In this document: piece after piece, positions 2,260 through 35,837 of the stretch
Layout: each line of letters starts with the position of its first letter
Position numbering within the stretch: the first letter of the stretch is position 1
Origin: a virus
IMG/VR virus record: IMGVR_UViG_3300029286_001647
DNA: 43,509 nucleotides
Direction: 5' to 3' (one strand)
The notes under the pieces: generated by a model
Seen by the model: only the letters and a program-made list of their open reading frames with translations
Database searches by the model: none
Told to the model about the DNA's origin: nothing
Position numbers and translations under genes: made by a program

Positions 2260-2794
2260 TGTTTTCCTTTTCCCAAAAATCAGCACATTTACCACTACAG
2301 AACTTAGCTTCTGGATTTTTATCAATAGTTATATAAGAATCGTTTGCAGTTATCATTTGATTACAATAAGCACAAAAAGAATTACTCTCTTCCCATCTAT
2401 TCGCATGATCTGGGCAACAGAAAACAGCATCAGGATACTTGTTATCAGACGAAAATTGTATTCCTTTTATTACGCAATGACAATAAGAGCATCTTGTTTC
2501 TTCATAGTCTTTTTCATCTATAGTAAGAGTCAGAAGTTCTTTACGAAGCTTTTCTTCTGTCTTCTCTTTTGACTTTATAGCATTTACGAGTTCTGTCACA
2601 TCATCAAAATTAACTTCTACCTCATCAAACTTAGTGATCTCGTCTGCTCTCTGGCTATCTCCCAGAAAAGAGTAGTTCTTATTGATATACAATCCAGCAT
2701 CAGGGACAAATATTTCCTGAATAAGATAAGAACTTCCGTGGATCGCGTCCATAAAACTTTCAGATACTCTTGTCACATATCTTTTCCCCTTCAT
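2249..2794 (-). CDS. protein with two C-terminal FCS/TRASH-type zinc fingers
   Basis: 'CSYCHC...FCCPDH' and 'CAYC...KFCSGKC' match the C-x2-C...F-C-S-x2-C pattern. Confidence 0.5.
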   Translation of the reverse strand: MKGKRYVTRVSESFMDAIHGSSYLIQEIFVPDAGLYINKNYSFLGDSQRADEITKFDEVEVNFDDVTELVNAIKSKEKTEEKLRKELLTLTIDEKDYEETRCSYCHCVIKGIQFSSDNKYPDAVFCCPDHANRWEESNSFCAYCNQMITANDSYITIDKNPEAKFCSGKCADFWEKENNVS

Positions 2795-2796
2795 TT

Positions 2797-3276
2797 TTAT
2801 TCCCCCCTCTTTAAAGCATTTTTGTAATCTTCTTCTGAAATCTCATATTCGGTACAAACTACGCACCATATATTTTTATAGCAATCGAATTCCCCTATCG
2901 CAACGAAATGCTCTTTCTTAATCTTAATAGGAATAGTAATCATCTTACTTAGCCATGCCACAGTGGTAGGTCTATCGAGTCCAGAGTACAAATACTCTGA
3001 TATCAACATCTCATTGCCATTCTCCTCCAAAAAACAATGGCATACCCCGCCATTTAGAGCCTGCCCGTCTGCAAGACAATCTATATGATTAGCCCTAAAC
3101 AACGTCGATAATGGAGTATTAGTGCCAGGCGTTAAAAGGGTATCCATGTACGGAGAAAGCAGAACATCTTTGTGATAGTCACTTACTCTGACTGCTTTAT
3201 AAAACGTCCGCGGTTGACCATCAGTCCAGGCATCGAGATACTCTTGAGTTTTTTTAGCATCTACGATTGTGCACAT
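2797..3276 (-). CDS. MC-family paralog 1 (159 aa, starts MCTIVD)
   Basis: shares N-term 'MCT(I/V)..(K/R)T..(F/Y)L..W.DG..KTF(Y/W)K.V', 'SPY', 'G..H..L' and 'IPI.IKK..F..IG.F' with 4 other ORFs. Confidence 0.6.
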   Translation of the reverse strand: MCTIVDAKKTQEYLDAWTDGQPRTFYKAVRVSDYHKDVLLSPYMDTLLTPGTNTPLSTLFRANHIDCLADGQALNGGVCHCFLEENGNEMLISEYLYSGLDRPTTVAWLSKMITIPIKIKKEHFVAIGEFDCYKNIWCVVCTEYEISEEDYKNALKRGE

Positions 3277-3743
3277 AGGTATTTTCCCTTTACTGCGTCT
3301 TCATAGACTTGTGGGTCGATTGTATATTTCAGAGAGACAACACAAGCTGTTTTCATGTCATCTCCGAAAATGCCTATTCCTCTGAAAGCATCTTTCTTAA
3401 TCTGAATTGGGATCATAGATAAGTCTTTTCTCTCACTCATAGTACGACAATAAACTTTATGAAACTCTTTTGCCTCTGATTCCAATAATAGGCAATGGAA
3501 GAATCCGCAACGAACATCTTCCATTGCGAAAACATCTTCCATCCCTTTAAATCTACCTACAGCATTATCCCCTTTATCGATAGGTATTTCATAATAAGGA
3601 GACATCATTTTAACTGGAACAGGATAGCTTCTTGACACAACGCAAGGTCCAGCGACAACCAGTTTCCAGAAGGTTTTGACTTCTCCGTCTTTCCACTCAG
3701 CGAGAAAACTTTCTGTTCTCGCTCTGTCTACGATTGTACACAT
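3261..3743 (-). CDS. MC-family paralog 2 (160 aa)
   Basis: paralogous to 2797-3276; 16-nt start/stop overlap 'ATGTGCACAATCGTAG' conserved with the next junction. Confidence 0.6.
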   Translation of the reverse strand: MCTIVDRARTESFLAEWKDGEVKTFWKLVVAGPCVVSRSYPVPVKMMSPYYEIPIDKGDNAVGRFKGMEDVFAMEDVRCGFFHCLLLESEAKEFHKVYCRTMSERKDLSMIPIQIKKDAFRGIGIFGDDMKTACVVSLKYTIDPQVYEDAVKGKYLCAQS

Positions 3744-4207
3744 TTGTATTCACCCTCCAAAGCTTTTTGATAGACTTCTGGATCTACGGAGTAGCAAGTA
3801 GATATAACACAATCAACGCCTTCATGATCCGGGAATTCACCTATGCCCAAGAAATCTTTTTTCTTTATCTTGATTGGTATGATAGATATGCTTTTATCCA
3901 TGCTAGGCAAATAGCTACGAAGTTTTTGCGCACTAGCATTATCTAGCAAAGCGTGATAAACACCACCATATATATCAGTTTTGTCGCGCCAGTCTTGGAA
4001 ACATCTAATATATCTAAAACTTTCCCCTTTAGCTATATATGCACTTTGGTATAAAGAAACTAATCCGCTTGGTGAAACCTTTCCAGTATCTTGATTTAAC
4101 GTCTGATATAGACTGAAACAAACCGCTTTGTAGAAGGTCTTTTCTTCTTCGTCTCCCCATTCAGCCAGAAACTTTTCAGTTTTTTCTTTATTGAATACGG
4201 TACACAT
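3728..4207 (-). CDS. MC-family paralog 3 (159 aa)
   Basis: paralogous; C-terminus 'EGEYKCVQS' resembles 'KGKYLCAQS' of paralog 2. Confidence 0.6.
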   Translation of the reverse strand: MCTVFNKEKTEKFLAEWGDEEEKTFYKAVCFSLYQTLNQDTGKVSPSGLVSLYQSAYIAKGESFRYIRCFQDWRDKTDIYGGVYHALLDNASAQKLRSYLPSMDKSISIIPIKIKKKDFLGIGEFPDHEGVDCVISTCYSVDPEVYQKALEGEYKCVQS

Positions 4208-4612: not shown

Positions 4613-4969
4613 TCACCAATCCTTTTCTCTTTGCCCACATCTTTTGCAAATATAGATACTTAAGTCACCGGCTCCCATATGTGAATACTTCCAATCGTGA
4701 CCCCATCTAGCACAATTCTCTTTATTCTGCACTTGTATCCTGTCTTCTCGTAGATCTTCGTTTTCTCTTTTCAACCTATCTACTTCTGCCTTTAGCTTGT
4801 CATTCTCTAGCTTTAAATCGTTCTGAATGTAATCTATCTCCAGTGACGATTCTTGTCTTGCTGCTTTCTTGTCAACGCTAAGACATCTCTTTCTGTGAGG
4901 AGTAGCTTTAGACTTTCTTCTACCAGATATGCCTCTAAGATTTTTGTTTGATTTGCCGTAAGGTTGCAT
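4613..4969 (-). CDS. hypothetical coiled-coil protein with C-terminal zinc ribbon
   Basis: start moved to internal ATG (MQPYGK) abutting the upstream stop; 'CKRCGQ' at C-term. Confidence 0.4.
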   Translation of the reverse strand: MQPYGKSNKNLRGISGRRKSKATPHRKRCLSVDKKAARQESSLEIDYIQNDLKLENDKLKAEVDRLKRENEDLREDRIQVQNKENCARWGHDWKYSHMGAGDLSIYICKRCGQREKDW

Positions 4970-4970
4970 C

Positions 4971-5303
4971 TTAATCTCCGAAGTCAGGCACTTCTTTGCG
5001 CAATGGTCCGTCAACCATCTTCTTTCTTTTCGTAGATTGTACAAAACCACATGTTTTACAAGTACGAGTCCACATATCTTCTGTTGTGGGGGAAACATGG
5101 CATGGGAGTTGCCTATCCACTCCCATCGTCCCTACTGGATCGCCAGCGAAGTAGTATCCAGGGGTGCGTATAGGCTCATATTTCGTTTCTGCCCATTGGT
5201 GATGGCATGAATCTTTTACTTGTGCTGCAAGCCTTCTCATATGGTTAGCTTGTTTTTCGAGATCTATTGCGGCATCTATATATTCTTTAAACATTTTTGC
5301 CAT
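4971..5303 (-). CDS. hypothetical protein (110 aa), Cys/His-rich
   Basis: ORF track. Confidence 0.45.
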   Translation of the reverse strand: MAKMFKEYIDAAIDLEKQANHMRRLAAQVKDSCHHQWAETKYEPIRTPGYYFAGDPVGTMGVDRQLPCHVSPTTEDMWTRTCKTCGFVQSTKRKKMVDGPLRKEVPDFGD

Positions 5304-6242: not shown

Positions 6243-6606
6243 GTTCTGCTATTTGTTTCTTAAGATCAGCTATGATACGATTTGCCCTTGCAAGCTCCTC
6301 ATTAGTCTTAGCAAGGCTCTGCATCTCTCCCATAATCTTCTCTTGGAAGTCTTTGCTTCTGGCTTCTTCTGAGAAGTTAAACAAGTGCATCATATTTGCT
6401 TCTCTAAAGATATACTCTGTAAGGACAAACAAATCATCATCATCTCTAAGACCAGTACCGCATTCACTGATTGCAGTTATAATGCTTAGATTCATCGGCT
6501 TCTCTTCTTTTAAAGCGCGAGAATAAGCTTTTGCAGCCGCCTTCATCGGTGTATCTGCGATAATTGCTGTCTCAAAATCACCACTTATAATATAATACTT
6601 TGGCAT
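6202..6606 (-). CDS. hypothetical protein with C-terminal coiled coil (134 aa)
   Basis: ORF track. Confidence 0.5.
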   Translation of the reverse strand: MPKYYIISGDFETAIIADTPMKAAAKAYSRALKEEKPMNLSIITAISECGTGLRDDDDLFVLTEYIFREANMMHLFNFSEEARSKDFQEKIMGEMQSLAKTNEELARANRIIADLKKQIAELEKNKEENDDVSG

Positions 6607-7118
6607 TACTCCTCCTTAACAGACTTTTTTAGCTCATTCAGACGCGCTATAATCTTATCTTGAACCCCTTCGAATGGCACTTTATTGTCAAACGTTGGTA
6701 TTGTATATTTCGTGACAACGGCAGAATTAGGTTCTCCTCCCTTATAATCAAACCTGCCCAAAGCGACGAAATCCTTTTTATCTACCTCGACTTCTACAAT
6801 ATAGCACTCGTATGAACAATGTATTAATTGGGCGCAATTGTTTTGAAGTAGAGCAATAGCCCCGCCTTCTATGATCGAGTCTACGCTTAAAAACAGATGA
6901 GCGCCCCTTGTCACTTCTTTAAGCTCAATCTCTAGATGAGAAAGAGTGTTATCTATTCTACTAGAATAGTTTTCACCGAGATTAATCTCCAATCCCATAT
7001 ATGGAGAAAGATATGCCTCAGGATAGCATCTAACAACCTTAAGAAATGTCTTTTTCTCGCCGTCTTTCCAATCTGCAAGAAACTTGCCAGTTGCCTCTAT
7101 ATCCGGTATTAAGCACAT
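6606..7118 (-). CDS. MC-family paralog 4 (170 aa, MCLIPDIEATGKFLADWKDGEKKTF)
   Basis: same motif set as the 2797-4207 trio. Confidence 0.6.
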   Translation of the reverse strand: MCLIPDIEATGKFLADWKDGEKKTFLKVVRCYPEAYLSPYMGLEINLGENYSSRIDNTLSHLEIELKEVTRGAHLFLSVDSIIEGGAIALLQNNCAQLIHCSYECYIVEVEVDKKDFVALGRFDYKGGEPNSAVVTKYTIPTFDNKVPFEGVQDKIIARLNELKKSVKEE

Positions 7119-22324: not shown

Positions 22325-22682
22325 CTTTCGTTCCTTTCTTCGTGAGATCTACTGCTGTCACTTCTTTCACGGACTCAATGACCGCAGGAGTCTTCAACCA
22401 TTTTACCGCGCCATTTGCCACTTTCTGTGAAAGTTTGGAAATAGCGTCTTTTTCGTCATCTGCTTCCAACACAATTCCCTTCTTCTGACCTTTGAAGCGG
22501 ATCTCAAACTTTTGTGTTTTAGAGCAGCAACCATCACATCCGTGAATCCCATTTGCACCTTTATGAGATTTCAGGTATTCAAGATTGGGATGCCCAACTC
22601 CATGTTCACAAACGTCTTCAACGAGTCCAGTTTCCCTTGTTATTTGGTCCACCGCCCAAAATGGTTTTTTGTATTTTGCCAT
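22317..22682 (-). CDS. hypothetical Cys/His-rich protein (121 aa)
   Basis: 'CEHGVGHP...HGCDGCC'. Confidence 0.5.
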   Translation of the reverse strand: MAKYKKPFWAVDQITRETGLVEDVCEHGVGHPNLEYLKSHKGANGIHGCDGCCSKTQKFEIRFKGQKKGIVLEADDEKDAISKLSQKVANGAVKWLKTPAVIESVKEVTAVDLTKKGTKDD

Positions 22683-22926
22683 TATTCCCTCTCTTTACTT
22701 TAAAATCAAACTTAGGATGATCATTATCCTGTTTCTTATCGGTTTGCAAATACCATATATCGCAATCATTCATAACAGAATGAGGATATGATTCCTCACA
22801 GTAGATTACGATATGATCGACTAGCGCCGTCGGATGATCATCAATCCATTTCTCCCATTGATCGGTATGCGCGACTTGGCAACCGCACAAGAAGATGAGA
22901 GACAGAATTAGAAGATACTTAATCAT
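22618..22926 (-). CDS. putative secreted lipoprotein (102 aa)
   Basis: signal peptide 'MIKYLLILSLIFLCGC' with lipobox-like LCGC. Confidence 0.4.
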   Translation of the reverse strand: MIKYLLILSLIFLCGCQVAHTDQWEKWIDDHPTALVDHIVIYCEESYPHSVMNDCDIWYLQTDKKQDNDHPKFDFKVKRGNNGKIQKTILGGGPNNKGNWTR

Positions 22927-23158: not shown

Positions 23159-23419
23159 TTACCACTTTGACGGTTTATGAAACCAGTTTGAAACCTTATC
23201 ATCACTTTTACCACATGCAATTGCTACTATAGCAGCTATTAGCATGATAAAAGTCCAAATAGGACCGAATCCGATAACAGCTATGACAGTAGCGATAGCA
23301 TAGGCATTAGACCACATTCCTCCGCCATAATTCTTAACTCCACATCTATGAATAAAATAGCCAGGAACACCCATAAGAACCCATAAGATATATGTTAGGA
23401 TGGCAGGATCCATATTCAT
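23159..23419 (-). CDS. small 2-TM protein, KPxKW family (…NWFHKPSKW)
   Basis: one of a tandem array sharing the C-terminal W-x2-3-(K/E)P(A/S)(K/S)W. Confidence 0.5.
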   Translation of the reverse strand: MNMDPAILTYILWVLMGVPGYFIHRCGVKNYGGGMWSNAYAIATVIAVIGFGPIWTFIMLIAAIVAIACGKSDDKVSNWFHKPSKW

Positions 23420-23426
23420 TCCTCCT

Positions 23427-23681
23427 TCACCATTTTGACGGTTTATTCAGCCACTTGTCAAGGCTATATCCCTTTTCGTCTAGGGCGATAAGGATAACAG
23501 CGATAGAGCCAAGTATAGAACCTACAGGTCCGCATATAGAGCAACAGACAATAAAGAAAATACTGTCTTTAACAAGCCATCGCTCTTTCTGTCTTTTCGT
23601 TATGCTCCTGATGATGATATAGGCAGGAATGCCAGCAACAATCCATCCCAGAATAAACATTAAAGTCCACAAAGCATCCAT
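23427..23681 (-). CDS. small 2-TM protein, KPxKW family (…KWLNKPSKW)
   Basis: as above. Confidence 0.5.
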   Translation of the reverse strand: MDALWTLMFILGWIVAGIPAYIIIRSITKRQKERWLVKDSIFFIVCCSICGPVGSILGSIAVILIALDEKGYSLDKWLNKPSKW

Positions 23682-23693
23682 TTCGTTTCTCCT

Positions 23694-23969
23694 TTACCAT
23701 TTAGCGGGTTTGTCTAACTTGCCTAGCCAATAAACGCCATATATGATTAAGAACACAAATAGACCTATTGGCAACAGAGATAGAAAAATAACCACTATCC
23801 TATCTCCAATTGTATATCTCCAAAATCTCTCTTGGCACAATATCTGCCTAGAAAATAGGACACGGAAATTGATACCACATACAACATATACAAAAATAAT
23901 TCTGCTTCTGATGATGACATATCTCTTTCCTTTCCAATTACCAACTAGCAGGTTCGTCCCAATCACCAC
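23694..23969 (-). CDS. small membrane protein, KPxKW family (…GKLDKPAKW)
   Basis: as above; start uncertain. Confidence 0.45.
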   Translation of the reverse strand: MVIGTNLLVGNWKGKRYVIIRSRIIFVYVVCGINFRVLFSRQILCQERFWRYTIGDRIVVIFLSLLPIGLFVFLIIYGVYWLGKLDKPAKW

Positions 23970-24153
23970 AAAATCTAATAAGCAACACTATAAATATAGC
24001 GCATAAACCGCATGGACCCAGCAGAGAGATAAACCCACAGATTGCTCTATCTCCTTTAGTCCATTCATCAAAATCTTTCAAAGCGGTCCACTTGCCTATA
24101 CGATAGGTGATTACTACTGACAGCAAATACAATGCAATCCATACTGCTATCAT
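23938..24153 (-). CDS. small 2-TM protein, KPxKW family (…DWDEPASW)
   Basis: start set at internal ATG (MIAVWIALYLL) giving an ATGA overlap with the upstream gene. Confidence 0.45.
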   Translation of the reverse strand: MIAVWIALYLLSVVITYRIGKWTALKDFDEWTKGDRAICGFISLLGPCGLCAIFIVLLIRFCGDWDEPASW

Positions 24154-24380
24154 TGTTCTCTCTCCTTCTTTACGATCTTTTTGTCTGGTGCGCCAAAAAT
24201 GAACATGATAACAAAAGCTACAAGAAACGCTATAGGGACGGCGGCTATCACCATACAAAATCTTCTGTCCTGATATGTTATACTGCCACCTTCAGATAGC
24301 TTAGTAGCTTTTACCATCAGAAAGTAGTTGATGAAGTACAAAGCGATATAACCGGCTACAAGCAACAATGTTTCAAGCAT
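24150..24380 (-). CDS. small 2-TM protein (76 aa) lacking the KPxKW terminus
   Basis: hydrophobic; same array. Confidence 0.45.
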   Translation of the reverse strand: MLETLLLVAGYIALYFINYFLMVKATKLSEGGSITYQDRRFCMVIAAVPIAFLVAFVIMFIFGAPDKKIVKKEREQ

Positions 24381-24404
24381 CTTTCCCTCCGTTTTCCGCG
24401 AAAA

Positions 24405-24668
24405 TTACCATTTCGCAGGTTTATCAGACCACAAGTATCCCCACCACTTACCAATTTTTCTTCCGGGATGTGCTTCCCACCAGTCGCAAAACAGAGCGCC
24501 AAGTAAAACACATACAAAAATCAAACCTATCAAAGACATTATAAGGCAAAGTGTCCTGTCAGAAGAAGACCATTTACCATGCTGATCTCTTTTGACGTAC
24601 CATCTCATAAACAGATAAGATGATACATAACAAGCCAGGTACGCAAGTATCCATAGGAAAGCTGTCAT
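24405..24668 (-). CDS. small 2-TM protein, KPxKW family (…LWSDKPAKW)
   Basis: as above. Confidence 0.5.
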   Translation of the reverse strand: MTAFLWILAYLACYVSSYLFMRWYVKRDQHGKWSSSDRTLCLIMSLIGLIFVCVLLGALFCDWWEAHPGRKIGKWWGYLWSDKPAKW

Positions 24669-24739
24669 CTTTTTATTCCTTTACAGAGGGATGTGAAACC
24701 TAATGAAAGATCTCACATCCCTCTTTGCCTTACAACTGT

Positions 24740-25432
24740 TTAGAATCCGCGGAAGAGTCGATCAGTGATGCCGTTATAGACCCTACGGAGCATACTGATG
24801 ATTGCGCGAGTAGTGCGCTTGATGATGTCATGAGTGCAGAACCAGAAAACGCTGAGAGGCCAGTATATCATCCACATCAAGATAGTGTCAATGTTCTTGA
24901 CAGCGCGTGGCTTAACAGCTTCGACATCATCAGTATGATACAAACTGACTCCTACGTCTACGCCAGCGCCTTCATAGGCATTGCGGATAATGTTGATAAG
25001 GTCTTGCCTTTGCTGCGAGGTAAGGTTTGCAGCGTGGACACTGATGTCCGTATTGATGCGCGAATAATACTGACGTTTGCATTCAAAAGCGATGTCTGAC
25101 GCTTCTTTGCCCTTAATAAACCACTTGATAATTGACCAAACCCCACCGCAACCAAAGAAGTAGATCAAGAAGCCATAAACGGCGTATTGCCAATTGTCCC
25201 TAACCCAGAACAGCAGATTAAAGTCAGACAAGAAGACAACGAAGGCGAGAAGGTAGAAGGTTGAGAGAGTAGACCACCATCCCTTGCCGTGTTCCTCAAA
25301 AGCGAGAATGACGGCGAGAAAACCTGCGCAAATGATCCAGAACAACGGATTTGATACAGCGAATAGTTGCCAAAACATTGTGATTCCATTTCTTGTAGAA
25401 TACACTGGAATAGAACACTGGGAAGTCCACAC
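24740..25432 (-). CDS. polytopic membrane protein (230 aa; GTG start or internal M19)
   Basis: 4-5 hydrophobic segments. Confidence 0.5.
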   Translation of the reverse strand: MWTSQCSIPVYSTRNGITMFWQLFAVSNPLFWIICAGFLAVILAFEEHGKGWWSTLSTFYLLAFVVFLSDFNLLFWVRDNWQYAVYGFLIYFFGCGGVWSIIKWFIKGKEASDIAFECKRQYYSRINTDISVHAANLTSQQRQDLINIIRNAYEGAGVDVGVSLYHTDDVEAVKPRAVKNIDTILMWMIYWPLSVFWFCTHDIIKRTTRAIISMLRRVYNGITDRLFRGF

Positions 25433-25455: not shown

Positions 25456-25484
25456 ATTTTACCGCGGAAAAGAAACACTTATAA
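25456..25484 (-). promoter_or_regulatory. conserved motif copy 1: coding strand 'AGTGTTTCTTTTCCGCGGTAAAAT'
   Basis: near-palindromic TTTTCCGCGGTAAAA core with -10-like TAAAAT, ~24 nt upstream of the 24740-25432 start. Confidence 0.4.
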
Positions 25485-25490
25485 TGGTTT

Positions 25491-25643
25491 TTAAGCCCAT
25501 CCATCACTGCCCCAATACTCTCGCGGAGTGGGAGGACCGGGAGGTTTCGGATGCCTTTTAATATACCATGCATCAAATAAATTAATGATTATAGGAACTG
25601 CAACAATCAATGTAACAAAATAGCAGATCAGAAAAATCCACAT
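25491..25643 (-). CDS. small membrane protein (50 aa), not in ORF track
   Basis: AGGAG 6 nt upstream of ATG; 'MWIFLICYFVTLIVAVPIIINLF...'. Confidence 0.35.
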   Translation of the reverse strand: MWIFLICYFVTLIVAVPIIINLFDAWYIKRHPKPPGPPTPREYWGSDGWA

Positions 25644-25667
25644 AAGCATCTCCTAGTATAAAGCATA

Positions 25668-25695
25668 ATTTTACTGCGGAAAAGAAACACTATTA
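25668..25695 (-). promoter_or_regulatory. conserved motif copy 2
   Basis: 'AGTGTTTCTTTTCCGCAGTAAAAT' ~30 nt upstream of small ORF 25491-25643. Confidence 0.4.
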
Positions 25696-25712: not shown

Positions 25713-27023
25713 TTATCCCACAATCTTTCCCTTTTCAACATTTACTTTTTCTCCCTCCGCCAAGCCAAGAACTTTACTATCTAAAATGGCAAAAGGATAA
25801 CTCCCATCGGCATCTTTCCAACGCTGTACCAATACCGCTCCGATATGCACTATCCATCCAACTTTTTCTGAGCATACAGAGCATACAGATGAATTAGAAA
25901 TCTCTACTATGGAACATTGACCAGTGACAGACGAAGAGCATAATTCTCCCATGTTCTTCAATACGGATTGATCTCCAGTTGATGATTGACTGGATTGATA
26001 TCCAGTTGAGGATTGACTGGATTGATCTCCAGTTGATGATTGACTGGATCGATGTCCAGTTGAGGATTGACTGGATCGATATCCAGTTGAGGATTGACTG
26101 GATTGATCTCCAGTTGATGATTGACTGGATCGATGTCCAGTTGAGGATTGACTGGATCGCTCTCCAGTCGATGATTGACTGGATTGATATCCAGTTGATG
26201 ATTGACTGGATTGATATCCAGTTGAGGATTGACTGGATTGATCTCCAGTTGATGATTGACTGGATCGCTCTCCATTCGATGATTGACTGGATTGATATCC
26301 AGTTGATGATTGACTGGATCGATATCCAGTTGAGGATTGACTGGATTGATGTCCAGTTGAGGATTGACTGGATTGATCTCCATTCGATGATTGACTGGAT
26401 TGATATCCAGTTGATGATTGACTGGATCGATATCCAGTTGAGGATTGACTGGATTGATCTCCAGTTGATGATTGACTGGATCGATGTCCAGTTGAGGATT
26501 GACTGGATCGCTCTCCAGTCGATGATTGACTGGATCGATCTCCAGTTGTATACCCATCGTTATTCTTCTTAGAGTCTTCGACAATCCATGCAATTCTTCC
26601 AGATTGTGTAAAATACATAGCAGACGACAATGACCCATTATGAACAACTTCAACAGACTTAGCTTTCACTTTTCCTCCATCGATAGAGACTACATCAGAT
26701 GGAGTAGCAGCAAGCACCAAGAACGGCAAAGTTGCATCTACATCCTTGCCTTCCCCGAGAAACATCCCCCATGGCCAAGCGTGAATCCCATTTCCGCATT
26801 TTGGTTTAGGATCCCAATCTGGACATTCTACAATACCAGACTCAGGCCAAGTAATTACAGGAGCAGTAGTCCCATCTTCCTTATCCATACCGCCTGTAGT
26901 ACGATTTCTCTCGATTTGCTTAACGAGCAAAACCTTTGTTCCATCGTGCGTCCACTGATGGATTGGGATATCAAACACTTTTTCCACATCTTTTACTGGT
27001 TCTTTAATGTCGTTTTCAGCCAT
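25713..27023 (-). CDS. Ser-rich repeat protein (436 aa): N-terminal domain, ~22 copies of the 9-aa repeat 'SSQSSTG(D/Y/H/E)(Q/R)', C-terminal domain
   Basis: encoded by the 27-bp tandem DNA repeat. Confidence 0.65.
   Translation of the reverse strand: MAENDIKEPVKDVEKVFDIPIHQWTHDGTKVLLVKQIERNRTTGGMDKEDGTTAPVITWPESGIVECPDWDPKPKCGNGIHAWPWGMFLGEGKDVDATLPFLVLAATPSDVVSIDGGKVKAKSVEVVHNGSLSSAMYFTQSGRIAWIVEDSKKNNDGYTTGDRSSQSSTGERSSQSSTGHRSSQSSTGDQSSQSSTGYRSSQSSTGYQSSQSSNGDQSSQSSTGHQSSQSSTGYRSSQSSTGYQSSQSSNGERSSQSSTGDQSSQSSTGYQSSQSSTGYQSSQSSTGERSSQSSTGHRSSQSSTGDQSSQSSTGYRSSQSSTGHRSSQSSTGDQSSQSSTGYQSSQSSTGDQSVLKNMGELCSSSVTGQCSIVEISNSSVCSVCSEKVGWIVHIGAVLVQRWKDADGSYPFAILDSKVLGLAEGEKVNVEKGKIVG
25964..26550. 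repeat. tandem 27-bp repeat, ~21-22 copies (plus-strand unit 'ccagttgatgattgactggattgatat')
   Basis: visible directly; patterned variants at 3-4 positions per unit; all six frames open. Confidence 0.9.
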
Positions 27024-27428: not shown

Positions 27429-27457
27429 ATTTTACCGCGAAAAAGAAACACTAATTA
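27429..27457 (-). promoter_or_regulatory. conserved motif copy 4
   Basis: 'AGTGTTTCTTTTTCGCGGTAAAAT' directly after the stop of 27455-27934. Confidence 0.4.
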
Positions 27458-34643: not shown

Positions 34644-35738
34644 TTACTTTCTCCCAAACCACCTATTATATATGACATCGTAAACACCATTTCCCCTAAG
34701 TTTCAAAAGTGCGATGTCCACTTTTTTGCGCAAATCACTATCATGGATAGCAAACCCGTAGTATTGAAGGTCAAACATCCAATCCAAAGCCATCACTTTG
34801 CCAGACCCATCTCCATTGGCAAAATACATCACATTGGGAGAATCATAGACAACAATTTCGATGTCGCCATTTACAAGCTTCTTATACGCTTCCTCAATGG
34901 TTTTTACAGTCTTAACCTTTGCGCCAATCTTCTTCAATGCACTAACACTTGTAGTGTTCTCAACAGTATACACTTCTTTCCCGTTCAAATCTGACTGGCA
35001 AGTGATAGCGCCATTCAAACGATCAGAAGTAAAGTCTGCTGCTAATCTCGCAATCAAGTTCGCAAAGAAACCATATCCTAACAAGATAAGCATAATGACA
35101 ATAGCTCTGCCTACCTTCTTTTTAGCTACAACATCTCCAAATCCGACAGTCGAGCTTGTCACTACGGAGAAGTAGATAGCCTTTCCCAGTCCGGGAATAT
35201 ACTTCTTATCGAAATGCTCTGACCCTCTTTCTGCCACCCAAATGAGATGGGCAAAGAATATGATAAAGATGGTATAAGCCATCAGTAATTCGACTACTTC
35301 TGGCTTCACAAACGAGTCTACGAAAAACTTAATAAAACGAAACTTTGCAAGAGATTTCCATTGCATAGCTTCTTTCGATTTGCCTTGAGGGATAAGCACT
35401 CTCAATCCCGAATCGAGATAATGCTGAGAAAAGTTCACTTGCTTTTCGCGATCTTCGTCAATTGTGATGCCGGATATGCCGATGTCTGCTTTGCCAGATG
35501 AGACATTCGGAATAATTTCACCGAAATCTACTACCTGATACTTGTAGGAAAGGTTTAATTCTTTTGCAATAGCCTCCCAAAGGTCTATATCAAACCCGGT
35601 GACCTTATCGCCGTCTACATTGACGCAAGGGGCGAATTCAGACAGATTGACGATTAAAGGCTTTTGTGACCCTTGTGTAGAAGGTTCTGCCGCTAGGCAG
35701 AAAGACGAAATGAATAGAATAGATAAGAGCGATTTCAT
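34644..35738 (-). CDS. GluR0-type ligand-gated K+ channel (substrate-binding-protein lobes S1/S2 split by a 2-TM K+ pore)
   Basis: signal peptide 'MKSLLSILFISSFCLAAEP'; S1 'GFDIDLWEAIAKELNL...GISGITIDEDR'; M1; pore 'YFSVVTSSTVGFGDV'; M2; S2 lobe to C-term. Confidence 0.8.
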   Translation of the reverse strand: MKSLLSILFISSFCLAAEPSTQGSQKPLIVNLSEFAPCVNVDGDKVTGFDIDLWEAIAKELNLSYKYQVVDFGEIIPNVSSGKADIGISGITIDEDREKQVNFSQHYLDSGLRVLIPQGKSKEAMQWKSLAKFRFIKFFVDSFVKPEVVELLMAYTIFIIFFAHLIWVAERGSEHFDKKYIPGLGKAIYFSVVTSSTVGFGDVVAKKKVGRAIVIMLILLGYGFFANLIARLAADFTSDRLNGAITCQSDLNGKEVYTVENTTSVSALKKIGAKVKTVKTIEEAYKKLVNGDIEIVVYDSPNVMYFANGDGSGKVMALDWMFDLQYYGFAIHDSDLRKKVDIALLKLRGNGVYDVIYNRWFGRK

Positions 35739-35837
35739 TGCAGTGAACCTTTCTGTATCATCCAGTAGAGAGTAAAGGGACAATCCGTTATCCCTTTACC
35801 CTCTCTGAATGAAACCCTAACAACGAAACGATTGTGC

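Follow-up and report, generated by a model that had tools for sequence, protein, structure and literature searches.

The stretch of DNA analysed here, IMG/VR virus record IMGVR_UViG_3300029286_001647 (43,509 nucleotides [nt]; hereafter the window), carries between positions 23159 and 24668 six consecutive small open reading frames (ORFs) on the minus strand. They are tandem paralogues of 71–87 amino acids (aa), designated g6 to g1 (Table 1). Each of the six proteins has two hydrophobic segments, and five of them end in the peptide [DNH][KE]P[AS][KS]W, referred to below as the tag, while the sixth, g5, is untagged. Thus, the tandem array of small proteins with two transmembrane (TM) segments and a conserved C-terminal tag, which an initial annotation had described at this locus, is indeed present. 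A six-frame translation of the window contains 357 ORFs of 35 aa or more, and none but the five tagged genes terminates in [KE]P[AS][KS]W. A purine-rich Shine-Dalgarno (SD)-like site precedes the start of each gene and all six proteins score at E ≤ 4e-11 against a hidden Markov model (HMM) of the family. The genes of the array are real. Alignment of the paralogues, proposed in the initial annotation, gives pairwise protein identities of 17–31% and brings in g5 as a true paralogue on the strength of its HMM match (E = 4e-15). The motif formed by W-[TS]-x-x-D-R in the loop and G-P in the second TM helix is complete in g3, g4 and g6, reduced to D-R and P in g5, and degenerate in g1 and g2. The g4 protein is 41% identical over 68 aa (E = 2e-9) to a protein encoded on an unrelated contig (P0034). 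Sequence comparison identifies the six genes of the array as diverged paralogues within one protein family, which has not been described before and which the present searches located in phage-like DNA only.

Some details of the initial description need adjustment. Of the several ATGA overlaps that it mentioned only one lies inside the array, where the stop codon of g5 overlaps the start of g4. The Trp said to stand just upstream of each tag is found at position -8 or -7 (counting the last residue as -1) in every tagged gene except g3, where it is at -11. An alternative ATG for g1 is present at 23413, and gene callers picked the 84-aa form.

The DNA repeat common to the genes comprises only the 31-nt stretch that codes for the tag. 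It marks four of the 3′ ends with 62–81% identity, so that the conservation of the 3′ ends reported earlier exists but is short. Within it the same peptide is written in different codons. DKPAKW is encoded by gat-aaa-cct-gcg-aaa-tgg in g6 and by gac-aaa-ccc-gct-aaa-tgg in g3, and the penultimate Lys codon (aag versus aaa) as well as the stop codon differ between g1 and g2. As identical tags are spelled with different codons and the DNA similarity is short, the constraint acts on the peptide. The opposite explanation, a tag that stems from repeated DNA in untranslated ORFs, can invoke the family of 31-nt direct repeats at four 3′ ends and the frameshifted copy in g3. However, the repeat does not extend beyond the tag-coding stretch, its copies are separated by synonymous differences, every gene has an SD-like site, and hundreds of homologues on unrelated contigs share the protein features but not the DNA. 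This protein conservation across phages refutes the artefact, to which only a negligible probability can be assigned, and the tag is the peptide feature that the initial annotation took it for.

The family was uncovered by an exhaustive HMMER search combined with DNA pattern scans. A word-indexed protein search was nearly blind to it, with 7, 12 and 34 matches, and yielded little beyond the window's own proteins and one homologue, P0007 (67 aa, ending in DKPAKW). A profile search of 1.84 billion cluster representatives produced 444 matches at E ≤ 1e-3, and the 150 of these that were listed are all 64–114 aa long; members mostly have 65–90 aa. They share a common build. A short N-terminal end of 0–5 aa, often acidic, leads into a first TM helix (TM1) that finishes in a near-invariant Tyr and is followed by a basic loop of about 17 aa ending in W-[TS]-x-x-D-R. 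The second helix (TM2) has a G-P kink and is followed by a variable tail of 3–26 aa and a strictly C-terminal [DNE][KR][PE][AS][KR]W. Two hydrophobic segments within a length of 64–114 aa are present in 148 of the 154 family sequences in hand, which include the six window queries. In an alignment of 144 sequences conservation reaches 90% or more at the Tyr of TM1, the Trp and Arg of the loop, the Pro of TM2 and the last Trp, and the TM helices are the least conserved parts. Two modules are conserved, a core predicted on the cytoplasmic side (Tyr, Arg, W-T-x-x-D-R and G-P) and the terminal peptide, and the membrane residues and the tail evolve fast.

Within the tag, the terminal Trp is present in 147 of the 154 sequences. 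It is preceded by Lys or Arg at -2 (78%), by Ala (79%) or Ser (16%) at -3, by Pro (71%) or Glu (15%) at -4, by Lys or Arg at -5 (71%) and by Asp or Glu at -6 (69%). A second Trp at -8 or -7 is frequent but not universal (37% against a background of 6%). The spacing between helix and tag varies, and in P0047 the tag follows TM2 directly. A distinct subfamily ends in ...S-x-W-G-N-x-[ED]-A-[KR]-W. Untagged paralogues include, besides g5, two genes at locus L005 and one at L082.

To map the distribution, the DNA pattern GAYAARCCNGCNAARTGGTRA, which encodes DKPAKW and a stop codon, was scanned in three collections. IMG/VR viral contigs gave 15 pattern matches with 4 true members, metagenome contigs gave 84 with members at about 17 loci, and 185,579 species-representative bacterial and archaeal genomes gave 62 with no member. 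Two variant patterns recovered further viral members. The database search for the tag motif that had been suggested from the window thus finds true members in viral and metagenome contigs, and the family appears, from these scans, to be confined to phages or phage-like DNA. The contigs that bear members measure 434,625, 362,532, 172,542, 113,897 and 60,249 bp, besides many short ones, and in every named source the proteins are annotated as 'hypothetical protein' or not at all. No match was found in Pfam, PHROGs, NCBIfam, PADLOC or PDB sequences, and none that is significant in BFVD (searched with Foldseek). In particular, the holin families (Pfam Phage_holin_*, PHROG, NCBIfam) gave no match at E ≤ 0.01–0.1, and Pfam and PHROG scans gave no sequence match to the Imm_superinfect or PHROG Sie families. 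The original impression that the proteins belong to no known holin, spanin or superinfection-exclusion family is thereby upheld. Against 50,697 GenBank phage records, megablast of the block found no match and tblastn of P0046 (E up to 1) and of P0001 and P0121 (E up to 10) returned noise only, the latter being a weak negative because the low-complexity filter may hide TM proteins. Literature searches on the motif and on similar phage proteins yielded nothing relevant. As far as the searched databases and the searchable literature show, the C-terminal signature has not been described before.

Members occur as singletons or in tandem arrays. The 434,625-bp contig (L005/L101) has an array of four genes, two of them untagged, one ending in DKPAKW and one in SPSKW. 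Other arrays comprise three genes (L082), two genes (L142), and two genes with one more at a distance (L149). A Pfam and PHROG census of 127 neighbouring proteins from 15 non-redundant loci returned DNA methylases, SSB, DnaB, HD-type phosphohydrolases, radical SAM, NADAR, portal and capsid proteins and the Thoeris inhibitor Tad4, and no endolysin, holin or spanin families are among its listed matches. Neighbours are shared in part: a gene similar to HD (p)ppGpp hydrolases is found in 3 loci, and a protein family called here 'MC[LT]' likewise in 3 loci. The subfamily ending in WGNQEA[KR]W has a conserved synteny, AAA_24 – DUF669 – member – RusA – DEAD helicase – PrimPol, on four contigs, two of which carry the same protein. 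Another member lies two genes from an Acb2/Tad1-type gene, and at L015 a ClpP-like protease is encoded two genes away from the member. In the window, the array is preceded by two DNA methylases and NADAR and followed by RtcB and an NIF phosphatase. No lysis genes lie near it, and an M23-domain gene 7.5 kb away is without a TM neighbour. Judged by its gene content, the setting of the array is early or accessory, not lysis.

The 'MC[LT]' proteins have about 150–170 aa, start with M-C-[LT] and contain a conserved His in a G-x-H-V/L motif; they have no PDB match. Four copies, possibly six, are encoded in the window (Table 1), five copies flank the TM array in L005/L101, and two are present in L149. 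At L001, a 3.8-kb contig that carries P0007, this member overlaps by ATGA the end of a gene (2676–3116, plus strand) for a 146-aa membrane-anchored protein that, by eye, resembles SPFH/band-7 proteins.

The genes around the array fit its earlier description as part of a block of membrane-protein genes, in that three TM segments, one TM segment and a lipobox are predicted for its flanking genes (Table 1). No relatives were found for the 212-aa membrane protein. The inverted repeat at the head of the array, which terminator prediction did not call, is possibly an element for RNA processing or attenuation. A 23-nt motif, GTGTTTCTTTTCCGCRGTAAAAT, has three intergenic copies upstream of the membrane-gene block, where none is expected by chance. 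It contains a near-palindrome around CCGCGG and may be a regulator site or promoter element. The 436-aa protein encoded at 25713-27023 consists mostly of a short repeat and has weak PHROG matches to tail-fibre-like proteins. It is called at only 292 aa in contig k141_668752, so that the number of repeats is either variable or collapsed on assembly.

Table 1. Features of the window, with positions counted from its first nucleotide
Feature	Position	Strand	Description
g6	24405-24668	-	87 aa; two TM helices, loop KWSSSDR, long Trp-rich tail, end ...WSDKPAKW; HMM E = 3e-20; SD-like aaagga upstream
g5	24150-24380	-	76 aa; untagged, end ...KKEREQ; Y, D-R and P kept; HMM E = 4e-15
g4	23938-24153	-	71 aa from ATG; loop EWTKGDR, LLGP, end ...WDEPASW; HMM E = 1e-23
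g3	23694-23920	-	Frameshifted member, end ...LDKPAKW
g2	23427-23681	-	84 aa; divergent loop RWLVKDS, end ...WLNKPSKW; HMM E = 8e-20
g1	23159-23419	-	84-86 aa; most divergent loop, end ...WFHKPSKW; HMM E = 2e-14
Inverted repeat	24685-24724	-	17-bp stem, 6-nt loop, 88% complementary; between the 212-aa gene and g6; no U-tract
Membrane protein	24740-25378	-	212 aa; three TM segments at the N-terminus, soluble C-domain; gene directly precedes the array; not a family member
Single-TM protein	25491-25649	-	50-52 aa; Pro-rich tail; upstream of the 212-aa gene
Predicted lipoprotein	22618-22926	-	102 aa (MIKYLLILSLIFLCGC...); signal peptide, L-C-G-C lipobox read from the sequence; two genes downstream of the array
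23-nt motif	25456-25478, 25668-25690, 27429-27451	-	Candidate regulatory element
Repeat protein	25713-27023	-	436 aa; 21.6 copies of a 27-nt (9-aa, SSQSSTGxx) repeat at 25965-26548
'MC[LT]' family	2797-3276, 3261-3743, 3728-4207, 6606-7118	-	Possibly also 2249-2794 and 4613-5098
Trypsin_2 protease	14034-14897	-	Follows the vault-like gene
Vault-like protein	14965-17241	-	758 aa; major-vault-protein-like, shoulder and repeat domains, Pfam E = 7e-28
GluR0-like K+ channel	34644-35783	-	Ligand-gated; solute-binding domain and ion-channel pore
PspA/IM30	35838-36518	-	Membrane-stress gene adjoining the channel gene
Protein-kinase-like	39061-40751	-	563 aa as called
PP2C phosphatase	41063-41968	-	
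VWA protein	42231-43112	-	

All genes of the 43.5-kb contig lie on one strand. Structural genes are absent, and the accessory functions include a GluR0-like channel, PspA/IM30, a kinase, PP2C, VWA, parts of CoaBC, NUDIX and CYTH. The contig most likely represents part of a large phage genome. Over its full length the vault-like protein shares 44% identity with genes from uncultured huge phages of 735 kb and 462 kb (LR756501/LR756503, LR756500), and only two shared genes tie the contig to huge phages. In these two phages no member of the array family is present within 20 kb of the vault-like gene, and neither the vault-like protein nor the 212-aa neighbour of the array has close relatives in IMG/VR with which to compare the array. 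The GluR0-like channel has no full-length homologue in the GenBank phage records. The kinase-like, PP2C and VWA genes form a close group towards the end of the contig with the highest coordinates, and an HNH endonuclease gene separates the first two.

The g3 gene, initially read as one ORF, is interrupted by a -1 frameshift. Residues 1–33 (MSSSEAELFLYMLYVVSISVSYFLGRYCAKRDF; MSSSEAEL...AKRDF) are encoded in one frame and the remaining 42 (WRYTIGDRIVV...DKPAKW) in the -1 frame. The junction is a TTTT run at 23822–23825 (minus strand; coordinates derived from the position ruler of the displayed sequence). Once joined, the two halves align well with the paralogues. Five further assembly records (ENA, JGI, Logan), some of them perhaps built from the same reads, contain this sequence at 100% identity and with the frameshift. 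This recurrence does not look like a one-off assembly error, and the complete identity of the five records at the array leaves no within-population selection signal to compare. From its sequence, g3 may be either a pseudogene or a gene read by a -1 slip on U-UUU-G. At a second locus (L098, positions about 400–1045), a single and imperfect case, some 90 additional residues stand after TM2, and the codons for DKPAKW still close the sequence but in another frame. Both disruptions may reflect chance pseudogenisation or recoding.

The distribution of charged residues gives an indication of how the proteins are inserted. The loop has a mean of 4.8 Lys and Arg residues (net charge +2.7), compared with 2.8 for the N- and C-terminal tails together (net about 0), and it is richer in these residues than the tails in 116 of 148 members. 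The N-terminal tails have almost no basic residues and often acidic ones. According to the positive-inside rule a basic loop is located on the cytoplasmic side of the membrane, which places the loop in the cytoplasm and both ends outside. The proteins are thus likely to form a hairpin in the host inner membrane with the basic loop in the cytoplasm and both ends, including the tag, facing outward, into the periplasm if the host is Gram-negative. An AlphaFold2 model of g6, based on the 144-sequence alignment, has one helix at residues 2–28 and a second that is kinked at G-P (35–46 and 48–66). The block means of the predicted local distance difference test (pLDDT) are 82–91 for residues 1–60, about 75 for 61–70 and 51–55 for the tail and tag. 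Disorder of the tail, as in the model, would be expected of a short linear motif that takes on structure only once bound.

Of the sorting, interaction and cleavage signals considered in the initial annotation, the features of the tag favour an interaction motif used for docking. In 147 of the 154 sequences nothing follows the Trp, positions -2, -3 and -4 are fixed, and the tag lies in the flexible segment of the model. A Trp that hardly ever has a residue behind it, together with a fixed stretch of three or four residues ahead of it, suggests that a binding pocket recognises the free C-terminus. By analogy with known C-terminal signals, the tag may tentatively be regarded as a short linear docking motif, with a conserved partner in the envelope, of a PDZ- or TPR-like kind, reading the Trp at its end and the free carboxylate. 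The inner-membrane hairpin would then serve to display the docking peptide to this envelope component. The cytoplasm-side core (Y...R...WTxxDR...GP) would hold the hairpin together or make a second contact, a suggestion that is joined to the docking proposal and is equally tentative.

The closest precedents for such a signal come from unrelated systems. DegS reads the YxF-COOH terminus of outer-membrane proteins (OMPs), and Prc reads non-polar C-termini. Like the OMP signal, the tag is a short peptide and would be recognised on the periplasmic side through an aromatic residue in the last position and its free carboxylate. It differs in sequence (P-A-K-W rather than Y-x-F) and in its carrier, an inner-membrane hairpin instead of an unfolded porin, so that the likeness is one of mechanism only. 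Peroxisomal targeting signal 1 (PTS1; [SAC][KRH][LM]-COOH), which is read by a TPR domain, also has a small, a basic and a hydrophobic residue in the last three positions and an obligatory free C-terminus. It belongs to a eukaryotic pathway that is irrelevant here and serves only as a precedent for tripeptides acting as specific docking signals.

A number of observations weigh against this interpretation. The predicted topology derives from the positive-inside rule, 20 of the 148 members show the opposite charge pattern, some have Lys-rich tails, and the term 'periplasm' carries an assumption about the host. No PDZ or TPR gene is among the Pfam matches of the 43.5-kb fragment, and no neighbouring gene is conserved across the whole family. 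The fast evolution indicated by a ratio of non-synonymous to synonymous substitution rates (dN/dS) of 0.45–0.7 in close pairs is based on noisy values, as these come from very short genes. The search profile contained the tag, and the listed matches are consequently enriched for tagged members. Finally, ends with Trp and Lys are also typical of a simple membrane-interface anchor.

The last of these points is central to the proposal that the proteins form pores or act as viroporins. The hairpins, perhaps of mixed paralogues, would oligomerise into an ion-conducting or membrane-perturbing assembly, and the W...K..W end would be an interfacial anchor or topology determinant. Small two-TM hairpins, such as holins and viroporins, often form oligomeric pores, Trp and Lys are typical of the membrane interface, and the second Trp at -8 or -7 in 37% of the sequences as well as the tag directly after TM2 in some members (P0047) would suit an anchor. 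Tagged and untagged paralogues stand together in arrays, as expected for mixed oligomers, and a GluR0-like K+ channel and PspA/IM30 are encoded on the same fragment. However, an anchor requires neither a Trp in the very last position (147 of 154) nor a fixed Pro at -4, Ala or Ser at -3 and Lys or Arg at -2. The TM helices, which would line the pore, are the least conserved parts, and the tag is kept with some 90 residues between TM2 and the end at L098, where it is in another frame. The pore is for these reasons considered rather unlikely. A function in the timing of lysis, as a class II holin, pinholin or antiholin-like protein, is very unlikely. Proteins of 65–90 aa with two TM helices and a charged C-terminal end do fit a generic holin, and some phages have paired holin and antiholin genes. 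Yet there is no holin-family match in Pfam, PHROGs or NCBIfam, endolysin and spanin families are lacking from the listed matches of the neighbour census and from the vicinity of the array, one subfamily is fixed inside a replication module, and up to six copies are unlike holins. The predicted loop-inside topology is also opposite to that of class II holins. A spanin was rejected as a candidate. Spanins have a long periplasmic coiled coil and a lipoprotein gene that is paired or embedded. Here, the tails measure only 3–26 aa, the candidate lipoprotein downstream of the array is separate, and no lipoprotein is found among the shared neighbour clusters.

Alternatively, the variable TM helices could act as adaptors that bind membrane proteins of the host or of an invader, with the tag recruiting a protease that reads C-termini (of the Prc/Ctp or HtrA type), either to destroy the target or to time the turnover of the protein itself. 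The modular pattern of variable helices and invariant ends and the multiplication of the family into diverged paralogues would agree with such a degron, and a free C-terminal aromatic residue is a handle for PDZ-proteases. A ClpP-like protease is encoded two genes from the L015 member and a Trypsin_2 protease is present in the window. The latter was rejected as a PDZ-bearing HtrA protein that reads the tag because no PDZ domain was detected in it, and it lies 9 kb away. A ClpP neighbour occurs in one case only, ClpP works in the cytoplasm, the comparison of neighbours between loci shows no protease gene that accompanies the family, and Lys at -2 with a terminal Trp is not a known preference of Prc or DegS. 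This makes the adaptor quite unlikely, if less so than a lysis function.

The best overall reading, which is nevertheless a tentative one, is that the array encodes early accessory inner-membrane proteins with both termini predicted outside and a disordered C-terminal docking peptide. Early or accessory context, paralogue expansion and a docking peptide together would suggest exclusion or counter-defence. The proteins might accordingly take part in early remodelling of the envelope, that is, in superinfection exclusion or in neutralising membrane-acting host defences, a role that must be considered doubtful at present. If they did, the expansion of paralogues and the fast divergence of TM helices and tails would be the outcome of an arms race. 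A more specific and unlikely version holds that ...P-A-K-W-COOH is a phage 'address label' by which the hairpins dock to one conserved component of the bacterial envelope, and that the diverging helices capture different membrane targets, for example channels through which rival phages enter or membrane-acting defence effectors. In that case the array would form a modular exclusion or counter-defence battery embedded in the membrane.

Among characterised phage proteins, T4 Imm (Imm_superinfect) comes close in its general features. It is likewise a small early inner-membrane protein with about two TM segments, encoded among accessory early genes, and the action on the envelope envisaged above is that of Imm. 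There is no sequence match, and Imm has no C-terminal Trp tag and is not arrayed. Class II holins and pinholins such as S68 of phage 21 are likewise encoded by phages, measure about 70 aa and combine two TM helices with a short, charged C-terminus. In contrast to the array family they are without the loop motif and the Trp tag and have an N-in/C-in topology, as opposed to the predicted N-out/C-out. The array family for its part has no sequence relationship to them, is not located beside lysis genes and is present in multiple copies.

A large, unannotated share of phage genomes consists of genes for small membrane proteins, among which several exclusion, lysis-control and counter-defence functions have been discovered. 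Should the tag be only a membrane anchor, the proteins described here would amount to little beyond a new, well-defined family to enter in annotation databases. Should it be an address label, it would have no described equivalent in phages. The family comprises hundreds of clusters, was found here in phage-like DNA only and recurs in accessory regions of large uncultivated phages. A sharp experimental handle is provided by its C-terminal peptide of six residues, the last of which is hardly ever replaced or followed by another.

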